From NCBI GenBank assembly GCA_017455205.1, contig JAFTBM010000035.1, positions 2,933 to 66,932 on the forward strand: DNA of 64,000 bases, in the 5' to 3' direction. A program made the translations under genes and the position numbers. Origin of the DNA: Bacteroidales bacterium. Lineage in GTDB: Bacteria; Bacteroidota; Bacteroidia; Bacteroidales; P3. Under the pieces are notes generated by a model. It did no database searches and had not been told where the DNA came from. It saw only the letters and a list, made by a program, of their open reading frames with translations. The stretch's first letter is position 1, and the number at the start of each line of letters is the position of its first letter. This document shows positions 1 to 62,965 of the stretch, piece after piece.

Positions 1-83
1 GGCCGCCATACCTGGAGCCTCCAGCTCCAGTTCCGCCTCCGCCGCACCGCAGAAGGTTGGCAGTTCATCGAGTCCCGCGCGTC

Positions 84-115
84 GACTTATTGAAAGTCTG
101 TAATAAGTCTTTTTC
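84..115 (+). terminator. Putative intrinsic terminator hairpin closing a GC-rich partial ORF that enters from upstream
   Basis: Perfect 8-bp inverted repeat GACTTATT (84-91) / AATAAGTC (102-109) followed by a T-run at 110-115. It lies exactly at the GC-rich to AT-rich composition break. Confidence 0.35.
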
Positions 116-513
116 CACGGCATAATGAAAAGATATTTTGTCGGATGGATTATTATTCGTAATTTTGCAGCCGAATTTGGACATAGTATAAACGAAATTA
201 TTGCCAATGAAGCATAGCGCATAGATTAGTATGCACATCATAGAATAGAAAAAAGCGAAGTGGCTGAACTCTGGAATCTTTGAAACTTCGACAACTTCAA
301 ATTCCACCCGGGGCAAAGCAACGGCGCTCCCGCTGTTAAGCGTGGGCTTATACGTTGTAATTGGGTGGAAAGGTAGTCGAAGACCTCAAAGATTCCGATG
401 AAAGCGAATGGTGCCACGCTCTTTTTATGTGCATATTTCAAAGTCTGGCACTAACAAAATGGAGAATGCCGATAGCCATCAAGTGGAGGCAAGACGATTT
501 AATACCTATAATA

Positions 514-762
514 ATGAAAAGGAAATCAATGATTTTAGGCGCAATCCTTTGCGTAGCTTTAACAGTTGTATTCGTTGCCTGCAGCAAAACACACAATTGT
601 GAATGCCTTTTAGGATGGAATTATACCGGAGAAACTCATACAATATCAATGGGTGAAGTAGAAAAAGAATGCAGCTCTATCACTTTTAGCGATATTGTTA
701 GCCATGTAGGAGGAGATGCTACAGGTGCATCTGAGTACAGGTGGTCATGCTATGAGAAATAA
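514..762 (+). CDS. Small Cys-rich lipoprotein (82 aa), function unknown
   Basis: Internal ATG of ORF 361..762. MKRKSMILGAILCVALTVVFVAC is a lipobox-type signal, and the short mature part has four further Cys. The upstream part of the ORF has no signal-like features. Confidence 0.5.
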   Translation: MKRKSMILGAILCVALTVVFVACSKTHNCECLLGWNYTGETHTISMGEVEKECSSITFSDIVSHVGGDATGASEYRWSCYEK

Positions 763-790
763 GTTCCTTTCTGTGAATCTTTATTAACCA

Positions 791-826
791 AGCCATTGGG
801 GGTTCATACTCTCCCAATGGCTTTTC
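791..826 (+). terminator. Putative terminator/attenuator hairpin between the small lipoprotein and the MauE-Trx gene
   Basis: AGCCATTGGG (791-800) pairs with CCCAATGGCT (813-822), followed by TTTT. Confidence 0.35.
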
Positions 827-838
827 AAGTTACTTCTA

Positions 839-1729
839 ATGAAAAACATAAATATTCCAAGGGTTCTGAGTATTATCGTAGGAATCGTCTTCATATTTTC
901 TGGACTAGTGAAATTGCTTGACGTTTCTGCATTTCAGAATTTGATAATACAGTATGGACTATCGCTTTTCCAATATCTGGCTCCTCTCATAATACTGCTG
1001 GAGATATTGCTTGGGATGGCCTTATTATTGGGTATCTATCAAAGAATCACGGCCATCGCCACCATTTGCGTGCTTTTGGTTTTTACTGGAGCGTATACCT
1101 ATGGCTACTTGGTTAACTCCGTGGAAGATTGCGGCTGTTTTGGCAGTCTGGTGAAATCCACGCCAGCCCTAACTTACATAAGAAATGTTGTCCTGATAGC
1201 CATGTTGGTTGTTATAGCGTGCCTCGATAAGACTGTTTCTAATACTGTGCCACAGTGGAAAGTGGTTATTCTGTTGTCAGTTATGGTTCCATCCATCTTT
1301 GCCGCAGGAATGTCTTTCAGCATAAAAAGACACTATAAAGACAATCATCCATTCGAGGGAATGAATGTCACGGCAACTCCATTGAAAAAATATGTTGATG
1401 CTGACGGTAAGCGCAAATTGGTATTCTTCATGTCGTACAGCTGTCAACATTGCTGGAATTCGATAGAGAACTACAAGTCGTATGTTGAAAATGGATTTGT
1501 GGACACTGCAGTATGTTATGCCTTAAGTTCCTCCAAGCAACCAAAGTCTGATTCAACGGCTCTTTTCTTCAAAGAATCGTATCCAGAAGTAAACTGCCAA
1601 GAAGTTGTTCGAGATAGCGTACCCTTTATTGAAGCAACTCCTGCTGCTTTCTTCATCGAAGATGGCAGGGTGACAAAAATCGTCACAGGAGGACTTCCTT
1701 CTCCATTTTTATTGTTCCAAGGCAGATAG
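839..1729 (+). CDS. MauE/DoxX-type membrane domain fused to a thioredoxin-like domain (putative thiol-disulfide oxidoreductase)
   Basis: N-terminal half has four hydrophobic helices and a CGCFG motif typical of MauE/DoxX redox membrane proteins. The C-terminal soluble half carries a CxxC motif (SYSCQHCW). Confidence 0.7.
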   Translation: MKNINIPRVLSIIVGIVFIFSGLVKLLDVSAFQNLIIQYGLSLFQYLAPLIILLEILLGMALLLGIYQRITAIATICVLLVFTGAYTYGYLVNSVEDCGCFGSLVKSTPALTYIRNVVLIAMLVVIACLDKTVSNTVPQWKVVILLSVMVPSIFAAGMSFSIKRHYKDNHPFEGMNVTATPLKKYVDADGKRKLVFFMSYSCQHCWNSIENYKSYVENGFVDTAVCYALSSSKQPKSDSTALFFKESYPEVNCQEVVRDSVPFIEATPAAFFIEDGRVTKIVTGGLPSPFLLFQGR

Positions 1730-2025
1730 TCTTGATGTTTTGGCAAAACCTCTATAGTAGAGCAAGATGTTTTCTGTAAAGGAATTGTCATACTATGTAC
1801 TCCACTTGCAAGATTAAGATGATCATGAGGCTTTTCTAAACCCCTTTTATTGAACCGTCGCCGAATGACCGTAGAAGGATCAAGCTTGGATCATAGTCGG
1901 CACAGGATGGAGGCAGTATTTCATCAGAAGATGAGTAAACTGGGAGCAAAACATATAAACGATACCTCTATTGTTCCGATTTTGACTCCAAAGCATCAAT
2001 TTTTGCCAGTATCGGCAAAAAGCTA

Positions 2026-2033
2026 TATCTTTG
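2026..2033 (+). promoter_or_regulatory. Bacteroidota -7 promoter box TATCTTTG upstream of abiEi
   Basis: Matches the TAnnTTTG consensus, followed by CA. It is about 110 nt upstream of the ATG at 2143. Confidence 0.4.
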
Positions 2034-2142
2034 CACCGTGATTTTAACGAAAACTTGCCGAAAGATTGGATTGCTTTCATTTTTTTAATTTTGTCATATT
2101 CAAGAGAAGTTGTATTTTTGCGTCGTCTTTTGATTAAAACAG

Positions 2143-2763
2143 ATGAATTACTTGCAGTTCAGAGAATGGTGGCACAGAGTGGGTTGCTTCAATATCTATC
2201 AAGTTCGGGCGTGGCGTCCGGACTTTGACAGAACCAACATTACCCGCTGGGTAAAGCGAGGCTACCTGTCGAAACTTCGTCAGGATTGGTATGCTTTCAG
2301 CGACCTGCTGTCCGTTCCCGACGCACCTAAGTATGTGGCAGGCGCCATGTACAGCCCATCGTATATCAGTCTTCATACCGCGCTGGCATATTATGGCATC
2401 ATACCCGAGGCCGTTACAAAGATAACCAGCGTCACCTCCCGACGGACCACATCGTACAGCAATACCTTCGGGGAATTCAGTTATCAAACAGTCAAGCCCG
2501 AGCTGTTCTTTGGCTACAAACCCGTAGCTATCCCCACCGGAGGCAGTTATCTGGTGGCACATCCAGAAAAGGCCATTATCGACCTGCTCTATCTTTATCC
2601 ACAGTACAACACAAAAGAGTCTCTGCTCGACCTGCGCCTTGATGAATACTGGATGCAAGAGGACTTGAATCTTGACCGCCTCATGGAATACACACGTCGC
2701 TGCTCTTCGAAAAGCCTCCGGCAACGGATTGATTTACTTGTAAAAACCTATCGAAATGATTGA
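2143..2763 (+). CDS. abiEi: AbiEi-family antitoxin / transcriptional regulator (type IV TA system)
   Basis: About 206 aa with a wHTH-like N-terminus (NITRWVKRGYLSKLRQDWY). It overlaps the downstream AbiEii-type nucleotidyltransferase gene by 8 nt, the typical operon layout. Confidence 0.7.
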   Translation: MNYLQFREWWHRVGCFNIYQVRAWRPDFDRTNITRWVKRGYLSKLRQDWYAFSDLLSVPDAPKYVAGAMYSPSYISLHTALAYYGIIPEAVTKITSVTSRRTTSYSNTFGEFSYQTVKPELFFGYKPVAIPTGGSYLVAHPEKAIIDLLYLYPQYNTKESLLDLRLDEYWMQEDLNLDRLMEYTRRCSSKSLRQRIDLLVKTYRND

Positions 2764-3544
2764 TATAGAGTATCTTCTGGCATTCTACCCGCAAGATGTT
2801 GCTGCGAACAAGGCATTCCATAAGCATATACTGAAAGAATATGTTGAATTGTTGGCATTGGAGTACCTGTCGCGCTCGCCGTTGGCAGAGAAAATTGTTT
2901 TCATAGGTGGCACCAACCTGAGGCTCGTCCACGGGATAGATCGCTTCTCTGAGGATTTGGACTTCGATTGCAAAGGACTTACGGAAGCGGAATTTATGGA
3001 ATTGTCCAATGCCGTTGTGGGGTGCCTTAGAAACAACGGTCTGCGCGTGGAATTGCGCGACAAGGAAAATCCTAATCTTACCGTTTTCCGACGCAACCTG
3101 TATTTCCCGGAGTTGCTGTTCGAAATGGGACTCTCCGACCATCGAGAAGAACGTTTCCTGATGAAGATGGAAGTGCAGGATCAAGGTGTTGCCTACACTC
3201 CCGAGACGGCGCTGATTAACCGATGCGGGTTCTTGTTTCCCATGCCAGTGGCCCCGAAGGATGTGTTGCTCTCGATGAAGCTGTCGGCACTCCTTGCAAG
3301 AGCCAAAGGCCGCGATTTCTACGACACGATTTTCCTTTGGCAGCAGACGTCTCCCAACTACAAGTTCCTCGCCGCCAGATGTGGGATAGGAACACCCGAT
3401 GCGTTGAAGCAGGCATTGGATGAGAAGTTATCGTCCACAGACCTAAAACTGAAACAGCGTGACTTCGAGCACCTGCTCTTCAATACTTCACGCAGTTCCC
3501 AGATACTGCATTTTCGGGAGTTTATAGACGACAAAATACATTGA
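2756..3544 (+). CDS. abiEii: AbiEii/AbiGii-family nucleotidyltransferase toxin
   Basis: FIGGTNLRLVHGIDRFSEDLDFD matches the conserved GGTAL...R.S.DLDF NTase motif of the family. Size and gene order are typical. Confidence 0.8.
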   Translation: MIDIEYLLAFYPQDVAANKAFHKHILKEYVELLALEYLSRSPLAEKIVFIGGTNLRLVHGIDRFSEDLDFDCKGLTEAEFMELSNAVVGCLRNNGLRVELRDKENPNLTVFRRNLYFPELLFEMGLSDHREERFLMKMEVQDQGVAYTPETALINRCGFLFPMPVAPKDVLLSMKLSALLARAKGRDFYDTIFLWQQTSPNYKFLAARCGIGTPDALKQALDEKLSSTDLKLKQRDFEHLLFNTSRSSQILHFREFIDDKIH

Positions 3545-3688: not shown

Positions 3689-4522
3689 ATGAAGAAAGTA
3701 TCTGTATTGATGGGTGCCGGGAGCATTGGCGTGGCCATTGCGCGGCGCGTGAGTGTGGGCAAGCACCTGGTGCTGGCCGACTATAATATTGATAATGCCC
3801 AACGGGAAGCGACAATGCTGGAGAATGCGGGCTTCGAGTGTTCGACCGTCAAATGCGACCTCGGCAGCAAGGAGGACATCATAAAACTCGTGGAGTATGC
3901 TACCAGCAAGGGAGAGGTAACCAATGTGGTCTGTGCAGCGGGTATGTCGCCCTCGCAGGCGCCGGTGGCGGACATCCTGCGGGTGGATCTCTATGGCACC
4001 AGCGTGTTGCTGGAGGAGTTCGGCAAGGTGATCGCCGAGGGCGGCTCAGGCATCGTCATCTCGTCGCAGAGTGGCCATCGCCTGCCCGCTCTGTTGGAGG
4101 AGCTGAACCAGGCCCTGGCCTGCACCCCCTGCGAGGGACTGCTGCAATTGCCGTTCCTCACCGCCATCGACGACACGCTGAAGGCCTACCAGTACTCGAA
4201 GCGCTGCAACGTGCTGCGCGTGATGATGGAGGCCACGCGGTGGGGTAGGAGAGGTGCCACGGTGAACAGCATCTCGCCTGGTATCATCATGACCCCGCTA
4301 GCCAACGACGAGCTGCACGGTCCGCGCAAACAGGGCTACCTCGACATGATCAAAGGCATGCCTGCCCGCCGCGCTGGCACACCCGACGAGGTGGGCGACC
4401 TGGCGGAGTTCCTCATGTCCAGTCGCGGCCGCTTCATCAGCGGTGCCGACATCCTGATCGACGGCGGATGCACTGCCAGCTACCACTACGGCGACCTGCA
4501 GTACCTCAAGGCCACCCACTAA
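3689..4522 (+). CDS. SDR-family oxidoreductase
   Basis: N-terminal Rossmann motif LMGAGSIGVAIA, catalytic YxxxK (YQYSKRC) and SISPGIIMTPLA. Length 277 aa. Confidence 0.85.
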   Translation: MKKVSVLMGAGSIGVAIARRVSVGKHLVLADYNIDNAQREATMLENAGFECSTVKCDLGSKEDIIKLVEYATSKGEVTNVVCAAGMSPSQAPVADILRVDLYGTSVLLEEFGKVIAEGGSGIVISSQSGHRLPALLEELNQALACTPCEGLLQLPFLTAIDDTLKAYQYSKRCNVLRVMMEATRWGRRGATVNSISPGIIMTPLANDELHGPRKQGYLDMIKGMPARRAGTPDEVGDLAEFLMSSRGRFISGADILIDGGCTASYHYGDLQYLKATH

Positions 4523-4619
4523 AGGGGAGTCCACCCCTTCGCCTTAAGGGGTAACCGACTTTCATCGGCGAACGGACGAACCCCGGCAGCAGGTCGATTG
4601 TGGGACGAAAGCTGATACG

Positions 4620-4812
4620 ATGCTGCAGACAAGCAGGCTGATATTCAGACCCTGGCGCGATAGCGATACCAGTTTGCGGTTCAGATGTGCCTCCGCCACC
4701 GAGGTGTGGCCTCGCACCAGCTGACCACAGCACCGAAGCGTGGAGAAGACACCTGGGTTCATTATCTGAACCCTGAGAACCTACATCCTATGGGACAACT
4801 ACTGGTAGTGGA
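4620..4812 (+). pseudogene. Decayed N-terminal remnant of a GNAT (RimJ/RimL-like) N-acetyltransferase
   Basis: Reading from ATG 4620 gives MLQTSRLIFRPWRDSDTSLRFRCASATEVWPRTS*PQHRSVEKTPGFII*. This is collinear with the common GNAT N-terminus L.T.RL.LRPW...D...L..ya.Dp.V.p.agWP.H.SvEes...I. There are in-frame stops at 4722, 4767 and 4807. No acetyl-CoA motif follows. Confidence 0.4.
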
Positions 4813-5032
4813 ATCCCAAAGAAGTGTGTACACTCATCACCCTCATTGTCTACGCCCTGCCGCTGCACCCCACGCTCCTGCACCGACAGCCCGCCTTCTA
4901 CCTCTGCTGTGCACCTGTCTTCTCGAGTGTGGTGATTATTTACTTTGTTGTATATCATCCACTTGAAGGATTATGCACCTACAATCAGCTCCGACGCTTC
5001 ACGGCCCCCGTAACTACCGCATTTCTTGGGCA

Positions 5033-5101
5033 GTTCTTCAATCGTTCTTCAATCGTTCTTCAATCGTTCTTCAATAACCTATTGAAGAACTATTGAAGAA
5101 C
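5033..5101 (+). repeat. Tandem-word hairpin: GTTCTTCAAT(C/A) x4, 5-nt loop, inverted word x2
   Basis: Words start at 5033, 5044, 5055 and 5066. Inverted words TATTGAAGAAC start at 5080 and 5091. The same word and layout occur at 56436-56504. Confidence 0.9.
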
Positions 5102-5306
5102 TATTTGATAATGATTGAGATACGGAAGAGGAAAAATGTGCAGAATGGAGGTCGGGCGGATGAATGGCTGTGGATTAGGTTTTTAGCGACTGCAGGGAGC
5201 GGTGTAGCTTATGGTTGCAAGGCTGCATTCGGGGTGCAAAGCGGTCGGGTGCGGGACGGGAAGGCGGCAGGGAGAAATTTATGAGGTGAGGTATTTGTTT
5301 TTTGTG

Positions 5307-5314
5307 TATCTTTG
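5307..5314 (+). promoter_or_regulatory. -7 promoter box TATCTTTG, candidate promoter of the 5.6-19.1 kb surface operon
   Basis: Matches TAnnTTTG followed by CA. It is preceded by a T-rich stretch and is the only such box between 4523 and 5646. Confidence 0.45.
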
Positions 5315-5645
5315 CATTGCCAATCAGCCGGGTCATTGGCGGGCAAGTGGTGGGTAAGTTCCTTGTCCATTGCATGTTAGTCGGATGGCGGCTGGGTGGC
5401 GGACATAATGAAGAAAGACGCTGCAAGGCGTTTTATCTGCGGCTATCGAATCTCGCAAATTCGTAACCTACCGCGCGATAAAACAAGGCCAGCGCCTATT
5501 GGTATAAAGTATACAGCTCTTGTATCTCTTCATAGCGTGGGCTCGGCATTGTTTGTCCTCGGTAGGAAGGTATGCGAGAACCTCGATAGCAGGATAGATG
5601 ATGGAACATACGTCCCGCGCTTTCTTTATTTTGCCATGAGATGGA

Positions 5646-6302
5646 ATGAATGAAACACACCGAGAGATGAAACAATCAGCTCGAACAATAACGATGGTTT
5701 GGCTTGCGGCGGCTTGGCTTGTGACAGGCTGCGTGGGTGAGACTGACGAGACCATTTTGCTGCCCGTGCGGGTGAGGGATATCCCCGAGAGCGTGCTTCC
5801 TGCCGAGATGCAGGAGGCATTGGAGCAGCAGATGCCTATCTACCGTGGCGACAGGCCGGCGCGGATTGAGGGTGCGTATGTGCTTTCGCCGGTGAAGTTG
5901 GTCTATGCCTCGGATGGCTACCAGGGGGATTTCTACGACATCGACTGGGAGGCCTCGGAGCTCGACTGGTGGAACAGGTGCATCTTCCGCGAGCGTCAGG
6001 GTGGGGCAGAGGGCGAGGGTCAGGAAGCGTGGGTGATTGGCACGGCGGAGGGGTTTACACTCTACACCGTCGAGCAGATGCACGATGACGAGGCTGGGTG
6101 GGACTGCTTGGTGGTTACGCTCGTCTCGGGTCGAAAGACCGACCGTGGCATCAGCGGTTTACGGTGGGCGGTGGTGATGCACGACAAGCGCGATGCCGAG
6201 GGCTTGCTGGTTGAGCCCGACACTTGGCGTGTCTTTGCCGATGGCGATGGGGTGGCTTCGGTGGTGGGTAGTAGCAAATCTCAAACCGAGGGTGGCCTAT
6301 GA
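5646..6302 (+). CDS. Hypothetical lipoprotein
   Basis: Signal peptide plus lipobox (MVWLAAAWLVTGC). The start may be an internal Met at 5667 or 5694. The stop overlaps the next start as ATGA. Confidence 0.6.
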   Translation: MNETHREMKQSARTITMVWLAAAWLVTGCVGETDETILLPVRVRDIPESVLPAEMQEALEQQMPIYRGDRPARIEGAYVLSPVKLVYASDGYQGDFYDIDWEASELDWWNRCIFRERQGGAEGEGQEAWVIGTAEGFTLYTVEQMHDDEAGWDCLVVTLVSGRKTDRGISGLRWAVVMHDKRDAEGLLVEPDTWRVFADGDGVASVVGSSKSQTEGGL

Positions 6303-11080: not shown

Positions 11081-14000
11081 ATGAGAACAAAATATAGTCT
11101 CTTGCTGATGGCGATACTGGCCGTCGCCACTACCCTCCCGGCACAGGTGCCGCAGACATTCGTCTACCAGACGGTGGTGCGCGATGCCGACGGTCGACTG
11201 GCCTCAGGCCGCCAGGTGGGCGTACGCGTTTCCATCCTCCGCGGGTCGGCAACGGGCACTGCCGTCTACACCGACCAGCAGCAGGTGCAGGCCAACCGAA
11301 GTGGCCTGATTACCCTCATGGTGGGCAGCCAGCAAAAGCCTCTCAACGGCATCAACTGGGCCAGTGGCTCCTACTACTTCCGCTGCGAGGCCGACCCAGA
11401 CGGCGGCAGCAACTACAGCCACAGCGAAGTGCACCAGCTGCTTGCTGTGCCTTATGCCATCCTTGCCCGCACGGTGGACAGCATAGGCCACGACCAGTAT
11501 GCCGAGCGCGACCCGCTTTTCCTCGCTTGGGGCAAGAATTATCTCACACTCATCAACCAGCCCACGCTCTTCAGCGGGCGCTACGCCGACCTTCGCAACC
11601 TGCCTACGCTCTTCAGCGGTAGCTATCTTGACCTCACAGACACGCCTACACTCCCCACCATTCCCACCCTCATCTCCGCCTTCACCAACGATGTGGGCTA
11701 CATCACCTCCTACACCGAGCGGCAGTCGCTTGCCAGTGCCGTTACCCTCGGTAACGCGGCAGGCGGCCAGTTGAAAAGCGTCAGCGACCCCATCGACCCG
11801 CTCGACGTGGTCAACCTCCGCACGCTTGACTCCTCGCTCAACAGCATCAAGCAGCACTACGACTCTGTGCTCTCGCGCCGCCAGCGGGTACTTGACTCCC
11901 TCCTTGCCGCCACCTGCTTCACCACCTACGGCGACACAACTGCCATTGCTTGTGGAGGCTTCACGTGGCTTGGCCACTCCTACACCTCTTCGGGCAACTT
12001 CTATCAAGTCATCACCAACGCCGCTGGCTGCGATAGCATCGTCTCCCTCCACCTCACGCTCCACCTCAACCGGGTAACGGCCACAGTGCAATGCGAAAGC
12101 TACACGTGGAGCGATGGCACTGGTCAGACCTACACCACCTCCGGCGACTACACCTTTACTCACACCAACACTGACGGCTGCACACAGGTGGACACGCTGC
12201 ACCTGACCATCAACTATCCAGCACATACTGCCACAACAGCAATCGCGTGCGGAGACTATGCTTGGCATAGTCAGTCGTATACCTCTTCTGGCACTTATAC
12301 CTATACTCATGCTGACGGCAACGGCTGCACGCAAGTAGACACTCTCCACTTGACCATCAACCATCCAGCACACATTGCCTCCACTGCCACCGCCTGCGAT
12401 AGTTACACTTGGACATCGGCTACTGGCACCACTTATACCGCCAGTGGCAATTACCTCTACTCCCACACCGATGGCAACGGCTGCACACAGGTGGACACCC
12501 TGCACTTGACTATCAACAACCCGATGCATGCTGCCCTCACGCAGGCTTCGTGCGAGAGCTACACGTGGACAGCTGGCAACGGCACCACCTATGCCAGTAG
12601 TGGCAACTACACCCACAACCATACCGATGCCCACGGCTGCACACAGGTAGACACCCTGCATTTGACTATCAACCATCCAGCACACACCGCCCTCACGCAG
12701 GTCGCATGCGAGAGTTACACGTGGAGTGCTGGCAATGGAAATACTTACACTTCCACGGGCCACTACACCCATAGCCACACCGATGCCCACGGCTGCACGC
12801 AGGTAGACACCCTGCATTTGACTATCAACAGCATCGTCAGCACAGCCACTACCGAGGCCGCATGCGAGAGTTACACGTGGACGGCAGGCAATGGAAATAC
12901 CTATACGTTCAGCGGTCACTACACCTACAGCCATACCGATGCTAACGGCTGCATACAGGTGGACACACTGCACCTCACCATCAACAATCCAGCACACGCT
13001 GTCTCCACTGCCTCCGTCTGCGATAGTTACACTTGGACTGGCGGCAACGGCAATACCTACACGGTCAGTGGTCACTACACCTACAGCCATACCGATGCTA
13101 ACGGCTGCATGCAGATAGACACCCTGCACCTAACCATTAACCAAAGCAGCATAAGCGATGCCACTGCCACTGCCTGCGAAAGCTTCACCTGGCACGGCAC
13201 CACCTACACTGCCAGCGGCGACTACTTCGATACGCTGACCAACGCCGCAGGTTGCGATAGCGTGCTGACCCTCCACCTGACGCTCCACCCCTACACGAGA
13301 GGCTTCGATGCCAATGGTGCCTCGCTCTCCTCCTTCTCCGTGGCTGCAGGACGTACGGTGCACTTCTCGCGGGGCAACTTGCAATACAATGCCGCCCTCG
13401 GCACCCACGCCACCAACGGTGGCGGGACGGCACAGGGCACATGGCGCTTCGCCCTCCACCAGTACGACACCATCTGTTCCAATAACCGCAGTGCATCGTC
13501 CTCCTACAACGGATGGATAGACCTCTTCGGTTGGGGTACATCGGGGTGGAATAGTGGAAACACCTACTATCAGCCGTGGTGTACGGCCAGCGATGTATGG
13601 AGTCAATATGGTCCCGCTGGCGACTATGACCTCACGGGTATCTATGCCAATGCCGACTGGGGAGTGTATAACGCCATATCCAACGGAGGCAATACTCCTG
13701 GGCAGTGGCGCACGCTCACCGCCAACGAGTGGCAATACCTGTTCAATACCCGCCCCGCTTCCACCCTGAACGGGACAACCAATGCACGCTACGCCAAGGC
13801 TTCGGTAGCCGACATACACGGAGTGATACTCTTCCCCGATGCCTATAGTCACCCCTCTAGTGTGCCACTGCCCGCAGGCATCAATGCCACAGGCAATGCT
13901 GGATGGAACAGCAATAGGTACACAGCTGCCAACTGGACAGCAATGGAAGCCGCTGGTGCGGTGTTCCTGCCCGCCACGGGCTATCGTATTGACGATATGA

Positions 14001-19332: not shown

Positions 19333-19508
19333 TCTCATTTTCAGTTATTTGGCAATTTGGTAGGAGGGGTGGTATAAATGGCTGACAGACAGCCTCTTGT
19401 AGGCATCCCCTTCTTCCCCTCTTCTTCCCTTCTTCTTCTCCCCTTTTTCCCCTCCTTTTCTCTGGAAGAAGAGGGGAGGTAGGGAGGCGGAAGGGAAAGG
19501 GTAAAAGA
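19333..19508 (+). repeat. Dispersed element, copy A: conserved about 70-nt head, 58-nt pure pyrimidine tract, then a complementary purine-rich tract
   Basis: Pyrimidine-only run at 19406-19463, purine-rich run at 19464-19508. 19403-19426 is the exact reverse complement of 46515-46538, and the flanking head is collinear with 46539-46610. Confidence 0.85.
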
Positions 19509-20604: not shown

Positions 20605-20730
20605 GGGGGAATTGAGAATTGAGAATTGAAAATTGAGAATCGGGAATTGCGAATTAGTAAGAATTGGGAATTGAGAATTAGAGGGGGTGGCTCTGCTAAT
20701 TCTCAATTCCTGATTCTCAATTCTCAGCGC
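20605..20730. repeat. 7-mer word array AATTGAG x about 10 followed by about 4 inverted units; fills the whole clpP-GT4 intergenic space
   Basis: Units read at 20610, 20617, 20624, 20631, 20638, 20645, 20652, 20662, 20669 and 20676. The inverted arm CTAATTCTCAATTCCTGATTCTCAATTCTCAG lies at 20696-20727. Confidence 0.9.
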
Positions 20731-25384: not shown

Positions 25385-25422
25385 ATGCGATGAGGGGCTG
25401 CCGTGGCAACCCCTCATCGCAT
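25385..25422. terminator. Bidirectional terminator hairpin between convergent SIMPL and GH43 genes
   Basis: Perfect 13-bp stem ATGCGATGAGGGG / CCCCTCATCGCAT with a 12-nt loop. Confidence 0.55.
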
Positions 25423-26452: not shown

Positions 26453-26485
26453 GCAAAAAAAGTTGAAACCAGAGTTGCCATCCCC

Positions 26486-26561
26486 AATTCTCAATTTTCA
26501 ATTCTCAATTTTCACTTCCCATTTTCCCCAATTCTCAATTCTCAATTTTCAATTCTCAATT
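26486..26561. repeat. 7-mer word array AATT(C/T)TC x about 10; same word family as 20605-20730 in the opposite orientation
   Basis: Units at 26486, 26493, 26500, 26507, (26514, 26521 degenerate), 26530, 26537, 26544 and 26551. Preceded by GCCATCCCC. Confidence 0.9.
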
Positions 26562-26568
26562 AGGACTT

Positions 26569-26676
26569 GGTCCGTGTCAGGTCCGTGTCAACTCCGTGTT
26601 AGGTCCGTGTCACCTCCGACTCGAGTCGGACTTAACACGAACCAATCACGAACCAAGCACGGACTAAACACGAGCC
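26569..26676. repeat. 11-mer word palindrome: GGTCCGTGTCA-type x4, 16-bp perfect palindromic core, inverted degenerate words x4
   Basis: Left words at 26569, 26580, 26591 and 26602. Core TCCGACTCGAGTCGGA at 26615-26630. Right words TTAACACGAACC / AATCACGAACC / AAGCACGGAC / TAAACACGAGCC at 26632-26676. Confidence 0.9.
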
Positions 26677-26883
26677 AAATCCCTACGGGCGATACCCGCA
26701 ATGGCGACGGGGATGGGGAAGAGGAAAGTGGCACGAGAAGGCAGCGATTAGGCACGGGACGGGGGGAGAACCACAGGGTGCGCAACTGATTTCTTCTTTT
26801 CAGAGGTGGGGCTTGCCGCATCGCACTACGGCGATAGAACAAAATTTTTCAGAGGTGGAAAGGCGATATTCAGGATTTTTGCG

Positions 26884-46330: not shown

Positions 46331-46463
46331 CGCTTTTTTTTCAAATTGCCAACTCTTCTCTTGGAATTCAGGCGGTTTTCTTGACGTTGGGTATCGAGGC
46401 TATGTGCCAGTTGGTGGGCTTGACAGCTGGGATGTGTTATCGAAATCGTTCCGACCCCATTCG

Positions 46464-46610
46464 CTTCCCCTTCTTCCAGGGTAAATGTTAATAAGAAGGG
46501 GGTAAGAAGGGGGTAAGAAGAGGGGAAGAAGGGGATGCTTACAGGTGCCTGATTATGTGCATTTTAGGCCGCCTTGCCCTACATTTCGCCAAAACGCTGA
46601 AAATGAGCGA
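46464..46610 (-). repeat. Dispersed element, copy B (inverted relative to copy A): short pyrimidine arm, loop, GTAAGAAGGGG-type purine words, conserved head
   Basis: CTTCCCCTTCTTCC at 46464-46477. AAGAAGGGGGTAAGAAGGGGGTAAGAAGAGGGGAAGAAGGGGATGC at 46492-46538. 46539-46610 is collinear with the reverse complement of 19333-19402. Confidence 0.85.
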
Positions 46611-56435: not shown

Positions 56436-56504
56436 GTTCTTCAATAGTTCTTCAATAGTTCTTCAATCGTTCTTCAATAATCGATTGAAGAACGATTGAA
56501 GAAC
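56436..56504 (+). repeat. Tandem-word hairpin: GTTCTTCAAT(A/C) x4, 5-nt loop, inverted word x2 (second copy of the 5033-5101 family)
   Basis: Words at 56436, 56447, 56458 and 56469. Inverted GATTGAAGAAC at 56483 and 56494. The inner two word pairs form an uninterrupted 21-bp helix. Confidence 0.9.
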
Positions 56505-56680: not shown

Positions 56681-56688
56681 TATCTTTG
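56681..56688 (+). promoter_or_regulatory. -7 promoter box TATCTTTG upstream of porP
   Basis: Matches TAnnTTTG followed by CA. Preceded by an A/T-rich UP-like stretch. Confidence 0.5.
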
Positions 56689-62878: not shown

Positions 62879-62897
62879 TGCAGTGTTGCACCTCAAG

Positions 62898-62937
62898 AAA
62901 TCGGGGGAGTTGGCTCAATGTCCATCTCCCCCGATTT
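62898..62937. terminator. Bidirectional terminator hairpin between convergent porN and proS
   Basis: Perfect 11-bp stem AAATCGGGGGA / TCCCCCGATTT, followed by GTTT on the plus strand. Confidence 0.6.
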
Positions 62938-62965
62938 GTTTCGTTTGTTGCGATTATCGCTTCGG

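Follow-up and report, generated by a model that had tools for sequence, protein, structure and literature searches.

A 64,000-nt stretch of the Bacteroidales bacterium contig JAFTBM010000035.1 (assembly GCA_017455205.1), referred to here as the window, contains two intergenic arrays, W1 and W2, in which tandem copies of one 10-nt word, GTTCTTCAAT, are followed after a short loop by inverted copies of the same word. With a probability of about one half, W1 and W2 are copies of a dispersed extragenic repeat that is built by slippage, can form a hairpin and is of the same kind as the short tandemly repeated repetitive (STRR) sequences and the long simple sequence repeats, and they are not an operator of the type IX secretion system (T9SS). 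Both arrays have a tandem structure, mirror-complementary arms and hairpin potential, arrays are gained and lost at orthologous sites, and neither an association with gene function nor a fixed distance to promoters is seen. The GTTCTTCAAT family occurs in low copy number at unrelated intergenic sites and is one among many array families, with periods of 7, 8, 9 and 11 nt. The location of both window copies near T9SS operons and promoters is a coincidence.

Structure and folding of the arrays

Exact copies of GTTCTTCAAT occur 12 times in the window, every one of them inside W1 (plus strand at 5033, 5044, 5055 and 5066; minus strand at 5081 and 5092) or W2 (plus strand at 56436, 56447, 56458 and 56469; minus strand at 56484 and 56495). 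When up to one mismatch is allowed, 17 matches are found, compared with 2.38 ± 1.44 in shuffled sequences (none of 100 shuffles reaches 17). The repeat unit is 11 nt long and consists of the 10-nt word and one variable base (this base and the 5-nt loops are given in Table 1), in agreement with the analysis by Tandem Repeats Finder (TRF), in which both arrays have a period of 11, 3.9-4.0 copies and 93-100% matches. The first-pass annotation of this DNA had described a palindrome made from tandem copies of one word, which recurs 51 kb away; the exact word positions and TRF confirm this, the second array having the same layout at 56436-56504. The two outer 5' words had been considered to be without partners. 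They in fact face decayed inverted words, which in W1 are ATTTGATAAT and ATTGAGATAC and are paired with the outer left words by RNAfold. The corresponding decayed words of W2, TTTGTCCACC and ATAGGCGAAA, align with the intact words ATTGAAGAAC and ATTGTCGAAG that a relative (L025, discussed below) has in its orthologous array, and the exact inverted words of W2 pair with the inner left words over 21 bp without a mismatch. W1 and W2 are therefore decayed 4+4 palindromes of about 91 nt with a 5-nt loop, in which the outer two inverted words have decayed.

The predicted single-strand folds have energies of -38.2 kcal/mol for W1 (z -8.2), -36.4 kcal/mol for W2 (z -6.6) and -56.2 kcal/mol for the orthologous array of L025 (z -13.7). 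Covariation of the arms was analysed using an ungapped alignment of 11 arrays, with shuffles and slid controls for comparison. Changes on both sides of the mirror are found 35 times, against 20.3 ± 3.8 times in the shuffles (a value reached by none of the 500), and the covariation score is 0.165, against 0.114 in the shuffles and 0.05-0.08 in the slid controls, with the signal coming mainly from the spacer and flank columns. Such mirror covariation supports a complementarity that would be either maintained or templated, at the DNA or at the RNA level, between which the test does not distinguish.

Several familiar structures have features that are not seen here. No gene is placed across W1 by the public gene calls, a consensus scan of 4400-5800 detects no T-run or terminator-like site, and no T-run follows W2 either, which agrees with the earlier observation that W1 has neither an open reading frame (ORF) nor a T-run. 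The units abut with one variable base, without the unique 25-40 nt spacers of clustered regularly interspaced short palindromic repeats (CRISPR), and a mere 5 nt lies between the arms, without the promoter-bearing segment of tens to hundreds of base pairs of an inverton. The 10-mer is not palindromic, and the GTAG or CGTC tag of repetitive extragenic palindromic (REP) units and of the hairpins formed by REP doublets (REPINs) is absent from both ends of the 11 aligned copies. Rfam has no match to the window at the gathering threshold, permissive settings giving only sub-threshold look-alikes of microRNA hairpins. A larger decayed palindrome that reaches into the flanks was also considered and was rejected because the left flank aligns with the reverse complement of the right flank no better than shuffles do (z -1.2 to 2.1).

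Arrays of the same word at other sites

A third array of the source organism is located downstream of glyS. In contig L084 (4297-4626), the 3' end of glyS is followed by 77 nt and then by four CGTTCTTCAAT units, AACCT and ATTGAAG, where the contig ends; up to this end, the glyS copy is the same as W1 in the left arm and the loop. In scaffold L082 (1-352), the glyS flank is joined to the right flank of W1, and homology with the window starts exactly at 5033. From these sequences, the glyS/W1 junction may represent either a recently copied third array or a recombinant at the array, or, in the case of L082, an assembly chimera.

Other copies were ascertained with a pattern that demands two perfect words, and the scanned GTDB representatives are a set to which the source genome does not belong. 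Four other Bacteroidales metagenome-assembled genomes (MAGs) among these representatives (L005, L008, L012 and L014) have one palindromic GTTCTTCAAT array each, which corresponds to one locus with two perfect words per representative genome, in MAGs whose contigs break at arrays. A metagenome scan adds the same-word arrays of L032/L056, L034, L035, L038, L049, L059, L063 and L069, such that three loci are known in the source organism and about 13 in other Bacteroidales contigs. The word palindrome that the first-pass annotation knew from two sites does recur in related genomes and is not confined to these two sites. Same-word layouts range from 2+2 to 11+1, with 4+4 or decayed 4+4 being the commonest, and the loop has 5 nt in 12 of 13 arrays, its sequence being variable.

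The neighbours of the 13 other copies are unrelated in function, as judged from Pfam annotation of genes that were called in the fetched loci with a simple caller of our own, based on GC3, the G+C content of third codon positions. They include ThiF, ribonucleotide reductase (RNR), NUDIX, patatin, OppC, EamA, Gdh and a hydrolase, as well as LeuRS, UDG, Band 7, HtrA, a P-type ATPase, pgi, a korA-like gene and lepA. In six of 15 cases, the array starts 17-38 nt past a stop codon. The arrays of L012, L059 and L063 are each followed by a GC hairpin of the classic type with a T-run, and these three arrays are therefore part of a 3' untranslated region and are not terminators. Other same-word arrays are found in intergenic regions between divergent genes. 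Across the family members, 55-251 nt separate the array from the next TAnnTTTG box. Viral contigs have no match to the array, such that a phage origin is unsupported, and a literature search for the word itself returned merely primers and unrelated sequences.

Low-GC environmental contigs contain long, direct, non-palindromic arrays of ATTGAAGAAC-like 11-mers (L065, 3415-3670; L030, L036, L039, L046, L047, L052 and L073), as exemplified by about 12 units between bcp and recA, and a conserved end motif, TTCAATGGATAATTC, is common to these arrays. They were set aside as a different family, with a similar word and a different architecture.

Gain, loss and drift at orthologous sites

W2 is located 166 nt 3' of a gene coding for a DPBB-domain protein and upstream of porP-porK-porL-porM-porN. 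At the same DPBB-porP junction of L026-L028 (69-72% PorP identity), the stop codon is followed by a conserved A/T-rich stretch and the TTATCTTTGCACAT promoter, without an array. In the window and in L025 (81% PorP identity), the junction has an extra 250-370 nt, within which the array alone can be aligned between the two, in register, the flanks being unalignable. The array of L025 is a full 4+4 array with drifted words (GTTCGACAAT, GTATTACAAT, GTTCTACAAT and others), and this drift is mirrored between the arms, with complementarity kept. The distance to the promoter box differs between these orthologous sites, being 176 nt in one and 99 nt in the other.

At the W1 locus, the closest relative, L074 (84% identity for a neighbouring protein), has the same promoter and leader and no array, and the more distant L075 and L077 have other tandem-word arrays. 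Presence and absence at orthologous sites, as looked for in miniature transposable elements with inverted repeats (MITEs), is thus found for W2 (in L025, not in L026-L028) and for W1 (not in L074). At the borders of W1, W2 and the glyS copy, no direct repeat that could be a target-site duplication is seen, and no alignable empty site was found. The copy number of the word shows no polymorphism among the compared strains, a result of little weight, as these strains are 99.9-100% identical to the window.

Tandem-word arrays as a class in the lineage

Besides W1 and W2, the window has five tandem-word arrays, of which most face an inverted partner (Table 1), and arrays of this type occupy six of its approximately 14 intergenic regions of more than 120 nt. 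A census of 260 kb of the lineage detects 46 arrays in 40.3 kb of intergenic DNA, compared with about 0.05 per shuffle. Their periods are 7 nt (nine arrays), 8 nt (four), 9 nt (six), 11 nt (25, a count that is inflated by the search for same-word arrays), 14 nt (one) and 18 nt (one), and periods of 10, 12 and 13 nt do not occur. In L026 and L063, intra-operon spacers are wholly filled by arrays. Another family, (TTTAAGT)n...(CTTACAG)n, turned up unsought at non-orthologous sites in L026, L038 and L059, and the imperfect complementarity of its arms is the same across genomes.

Some further arrays have different settings. In L005 (483-671 and 6308-6500), four copies each of AAGTGGA, TAACGCAT and TTCATCA are located within the coding regions of T9SS C-terminal sorting domains, in two paralogous genes, which shows that tandem words also form in the coding DNA of this lineage. 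A 1.6-kb intergenic region of L077 (8390-10000) is packed with different tandem-word arrays, among which (GGGACAGTT)n, about 120 nt of AT-rich DNA with a TAnnTTTG-like box and (AACTGTCCC)n follow each other in the layout of an invertible promoter. In the window, the heptamer arrays at 20609-20679 and 26485-26561 are about 70 nt long and mutually reverse complementary, and they bracket clpP and the genes for an M23/LysM peptidase, a D-Ala-D-Ala dipeptidase, a SIMPL-domain protein and a GH43 protein; they may form a long-range inverted-repeat pair.

Genes and promoters near the arrays

W1 is located upstream of an operon that codes for an unknown protein, an outer membrane protein (OMP) of the beta-barrel type, T9SS C-terminal-domain proteins and very large proteins, the latter without informative Pfam hits. 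For what had earlier been labelled a "surface-fibre operon", the annotation supports OMP beta-barrel and T9SS C-terminal-domain proteins. Between the end of W1 and the TATCTTTG box at 5307 there are 205-206 nt. This box had been noted before, together with the G-rich, C-poor spacer that precedes it, and both are confirmed: the stretch between array and promoter (5125-5300) has a GC skew of +0.53 over 200 nt and contains several GGG/GGGG runs. On the left side of W1, the adjoining 200 nt are C-rich, with a skew of -0.33. Since the TATCTTTG boxes are conserved in relatives that lack the array, they are not part of the element. T9SS genes are generally abundant in the window, and neither a transposase or recombinase domain nor a gene for a REP-associated tyrosine transposase (RAYT) is present among the window genes scanned.

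The TATCTTTG promoter of the OMP/T9SS-cargo operon is separated from its first ORF by a conserved noncoding leader of about 320 nt (5315-5640), which is also found in L074 (3150-3465), L075 (6150-6430) and L077 (9645-9925). The 3' end of this leader is a GCGTGGGC...CCCGCGC-TTTTT hairpin. RNAalifold predicts 75 pairs, 16 of which have compensatory changes, and no Rfam match is obtained even at E <= 1, such that the leader is a candidate for a new structured leader or small RNA. In the same operon, about 5.3 tandem copies of a 156-nt (52-residue) repeat are present at 12319-13143 in the gene of an 1868-residue protein. The first part of the window (1-3544) has a low G+C fraction (0.415 in the first 2 kb and 0.55-0.65 elsewhere) and has a gene for an AbiEii-type toxin at 2756-3544; this part may be acquired DNA. 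Ordinary GC-rich hairpins between convergent genes, at 25385-25422 and 62895-62940, indicate that conventional terminator-like structures are also used by this genome.

Table 1. Tandem-word arrays of the window and the promoter boxes downstream of W1 and W2
Feature	Position	Strand	Remark
W1 left arm, four direct GTTCTTCAAT separated by C, C, C	5033..5075	+	
W1 loop AACCT	5076..5080		
W1 right arm, two exact inverted words ATTGAAGAAC separated by T	5081-5090, 5092-5101	+	
W1 right arm, decayed inverted words ATTTGATAAT (5103-5112) and ATTGAGATAC (5114-5123)	5103..5123	+	
W2 left arm, four direct GTTCTTCAAT separated by A, A, C	56436..56478	+	
W2 loop AATCG	56479..56483		
W2 right arm, two exact inverted words separated by G	56484..56504	+	
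W2 right arm, decayed words TTTGTCCACC and ATAGGCGAAA	56506..56526	+	
TATCTTTG -7 box of the OMP/T9SS-cargo operon	5307..5314	+	conserved in relatives without array
TATCTTTG -7 box of the porP-porK-porL-porM-porN operon	56681..56688	+	conserved in relatives without array
(CTTCTTCCCCT) x4 facing GGAAGAAGAGGGGAGG	19410..19500		between convergent genes
(GAATTGA) x ~10, GC-rich centre, inverted (AATTCTC) x4	20609..20726		between clpP and a glycosyltransferase gene (both -)
Heptamer array (CAATTCT) x ~10.7	26485..26561		reverse complement of the 20609 array, 5.8 kb away
(GGTCCGTGTCA) x4, GC-rich palindromic centre, four inverted copies	26563..26682		divergent GH43/lepA intergenic region
CCCCTTCTTCC facing (TAAGAAGGGGG) x4	46449..46534		divergent intergenic region

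Comparison with known kinds of repeats

It had been stated that no described class of repeats builds a hairpin from tandem copies of a short word, which is not correct, as hairpins of the heptamer arrays of the cyanobacterial STRR class have been reported between hupS and hupL, near the 3' end of a gene and elsewhere (PMC2670836). The function of STRR sequences is still unknown, and roles in transcript stability, translational coupling and termination have been proposed (PMC2670836). As in STRR sequences, short words are arranged head-to-tail without spacers at many intergenic sites, and the word is common to related species. STRR units are usually 7 nt long and occur in filamentous cyanobacteria, whereas the present arrays have 11-nt units that are laid out as a regular 4+4 palindrome around a 5-nt loop, in an uncultured GC-rich member of the Bacteroidales. 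Heptamer arrays of the STRR type are also present in the window (20609 and 26485). The head-to-tail unit, the extragenic location and the recurrence at several loci and in related genomes are those of STRR sequences and long simple sequence repeats, although with an 11-nt unit and a Bacteroidales host the arrays are not STRR sequences in the strict sense.

Repeats of the long simple sequence type, with units of 5-11 nt, have already been described as a category, as summarized in PMC4679880 (Mrazek 2007, via MacGregor 2015). The TAACTGA intergenic repeats have a sporadic phylogeny, the same word being found in different genomes, including five Bacteroidetes; close relatives have shorter, repeat-free intergenic regions, contigs end in the repeats, the functions of neighbouring genes have no pattern, and slippage has been proposed as the origin (PMC4679880). 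The GTTCTTCAAT family shares with them the sporadic spread, the occurrence of the word in different genomes, the repeat-free relatives, the contig ends and the lack of a pattern in neighbour function. The TAACTGA arrays are direct (there is one indirect repeat in the BOGUAY genome) and are mostly located just 5' of start codons, whereas the present family is palindromic and mostly located after stop codons.

By the definition quoted in PMC3733652, a REP unit is 20-40 nt long, imperfectly palindromic and marked by a GTAG or CGTC tag. Like REP units, bacterial interspersed mosaic elements (BIMEs) and REPINs, the arrays are extragenic, hairpin-forming, dispersed and often located after stop codons or inside operons, with no visible target-site duplication; a REPIN, of about 100 nt, is similar in size, and elements of this group can mediate rearrangements. 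The difference is that here a nonpalindromic 10-mer is stacked four times, without a tag, at an apparently low copy number and with no RAYT known. The BrickBuilt MITE of Porphyromonas gingivalis has inverted-repeat ends and an internal spacerless tandem array with variable copy number, and is always intergenic (PMC4596501). It is, like the present arrays, a Bacteroidales intergenic repeat that joins inverted repeats with a tandem array; however, its bricks are 23 nt long, have one orientation, are located between distinct leader and tail units and carry promoters, whereas here the arms themselves are the tandem arrays and have the 5-nt loop alone between them.

The new aspects are the 11-nt unit, the regular 4+4 palindrome around a 5-nt loop, the lineage of the hosts, and the word families in their density and variety. 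Arms that are built of tandem short subrepeats are also a property of the eukaryotic Foldback transposons, which have long inverted arms of this kind with little between them; these are kilobase-sized, eukaryotic elements with known transposition, and to our knowledge no bacterial counterpart has been described. Phased operator and iteron arrays are a further point of comparison. R1 parC has ten 11-bp iterons, the omega protein binds 7-10 heptads in direct and inverted orientation, and PhoP of B. subtilis needs four repeats phased at 11 bp. The likeness of the present arrays to the R1 parC/ParR, omega and PhoB/PhoP systems is in the units of 7-11 bp, the 4-10 copies, sometimes in both orientations, and the division into a 7-bp core and a 4-bp AT-rich spacer; the difference is that those arrays have fixed positions in the defined promoters or centromeres of one regulon, and the GTTCTTCAAT family has neither a constant position nor an associated set of genes.

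Origin of the arrays

In the slippage-built repeat that is considered here to be the best explanation, the arrays would arise and change their length through replication slippage of the unit, and the opposite arm would be made and kept complementary by intrastrand (hairpin) template switching or by inverted duplication. Copies would reach new intergenic sites via a copying or recombination step. Where it is transcribed, the array would typically be part of a 3' untranslated region, 17-38 nt past the stop codon, and would fold into a stem of 21-44 bp; if this stem has an effect at all, it would most likely serve as a barrier or insulator where the upstream transcript ends, ahead of the next promoter. 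This picture fits a repeat that does no harm, or is of slight use, in the gap that separates two successive transcription units.

Several observations weigh against this explanation. All 60 of the 60 word positions are identical between W1 and W2, whereas the spacers, two of the five loop positions and the decayed words differ; by a rough count of our own, at least four events have occurred in seven free positions and none in 20 word positions. In the other arrays, the word slots that were not used for ascertainment are about 10% divergent, compared with about 50% for the spacer and loop columns (again own counts). This contrast between word and spacer is suggestive only, since the copies are related and the units duplicate, such that the number of independent events is small. 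It suggests that slippage together with neutral drift would not explain the better-kept word, and it is suggestive of a sequence-specific reader, either a protein or a transposase, for which no candidate was found. The copy number per genome is uncertain, as contigs break at the arrays, and some arrays are located in divergent promoter regions, where no transcript end is expected. A comparison of the folding energies of the sense and antisense strands, which gives 9 versus 6, is biased by the choice of the array boundaries and was treated as uninformative on selection at the RNA level. It is possible, if rather improbable, that the arrangement of 4 x 11 nt + 5 nt + 4 x 11 nt is a functional unit that is read by a putative sequence-specific protein of uncultured Bacteroidales; such a reader might serve a foldback-type mobile element of bacteria as its enzyme, or might polymerise along words phased at 11 bp.

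A non-autonomous mobile element of the foldback or REPIN type, in which the arms would be transposase-binding words and the single-stranded hairpin would be the substrate of an enzyme encoded elsewhere, is a doubtful explanation. It would agree with the GTTCTTCAAT arrays at non-orthologous sites in several genomes, the presence/absence differences at orthologous sites and the third copy, in which the left arm and loop are those of W1 and the homology breaks exactly at the first word. The better conservation of the words than of the spacers and loops, the retention of the same imperfect arm complementarity by (TTTAAGT)n...(CTTACAG)n in two genomes, and the REPIN-like size and location also point in this direction, and a MITE carrying a minisatellite exists in Porphyromonas (PMC4596501). 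Together, the word conservation, the sharp boundary of the copy and the spread over non-orthologous sites keep both this explanation and the phased binding array discussed below in contention. However, a target-site duplication is not visible, the window has no detected transposase or recombinase domain, and there is one locus with two perfect words per GTDB representative genome. W2, moreover, is old (being common to L025) and yet has six perfect words, unlike the neutral decay of an inserted copy, and the many different words with the same architecture imply that many cognate enzymes would be needed.

An array of phased binding sites, with one protomer of a DNA-binding protein per 11-bp unit and with convergent arms, is unlikely. 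Its unit would consist of a 7-bp core, GTTCTTC, and an AT-rich AATN, to be compared with the PhoB/OmpR-type boxes, the ParR-parC iterons and the omega heptads. The 11-bp period is near one helical turn, four copies per arm are recurrent, variation in the 11th base and the loop contrasts with a conserved word, and the periods of the class cluster at 7, 8, 9 and 11, with none at 10, 12 or 13. These features are offset by the lack of a conserved gene association, by a promoter distance that is variable and differs between orthologs, and by the drift of the word at the orthologous site while the arms stay complementary. In addition, the arms covary in mirror fashion with the spacers included, arrays are found inside operon spacers and directly after stop codons, and single or double words outside arrays occur at the chance level.

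The possibility that the arrays are intrinsic terminators of the upstream genes is quite improbable. In its favour are the strong hairpin that separates the end of a gene from the following promoter and, in six relatives, an array that starts 17-38 nt past the stop codon. Against it, the AT-rich stem lacks a T-run, the consensus scan is empty, and conventional GC-rich hairpins are used by the genome where genes converge; in L012, L059 and L063 the array is followed by a classic terminator, and arrays are also present in divergent regions and inside operons.

A cis-regulatory element specific for T9SS and surface-protein operons is very improbable, even though each of the two window arrays stands before a T9SS-linked operon: the third array is found after glyS, unrelated genes neighbour the thirteen other copies, relatives that lack the array keep the porP promoter (L026-L028) or the promoter and leader of the OMP operon (L074), and the window is simply rich in T9SS genes. 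A T9SS or regulon link was rejected in view of the genes flanking these 13 copies and of the glyS copy, and phasing with the promoter in view of the variable distance to the box. The promoter link drawn in the first-pass annotation is abandoned on the same grounds, and the proposed tabulation of the copies gives no bias towards a fixed promoter distance or a shared gene function.

The arrays are not an assembly artefact, and an assembly or sequencing error is next to inconceivable, since, although several contigs begin exactly at 5033 or stop inside an array, W1 is identical in four and W2 in three independent assemblies, identical arrays with both flanks are found in L016, L017, L019, L078 and L082, which are from different samples and assemblers, and same-word arrays are also present in MAGs from other groups.

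Implications

For the annotation of the window, these results remove a tempting but unsupported link with T9SS regulation. Arrays of this kind break short-read assemblies and may mark recombination breakpoints, as exemplified by the glyS/W1 junction. If a sequence-specific reader does exist, then the many families of words, with their periods of 7, 8, 9 and 11 nt, would together form a system of reader/array pairs. Neither a function nor a route of spreading has been established for the STRR and TAACTGA repeats in the decades since they became known. The Bacteroidales lineage studied here has a dense and unusually regular version of such repeats, with mirror-complementary arms of four units, a word that is better kept than the spacer, copies at non-orthologous sites and one site that is kept in a relative with 81% PorP identity, such that slippage debris, a selfish element and a binding array can be tested against each other in one system.

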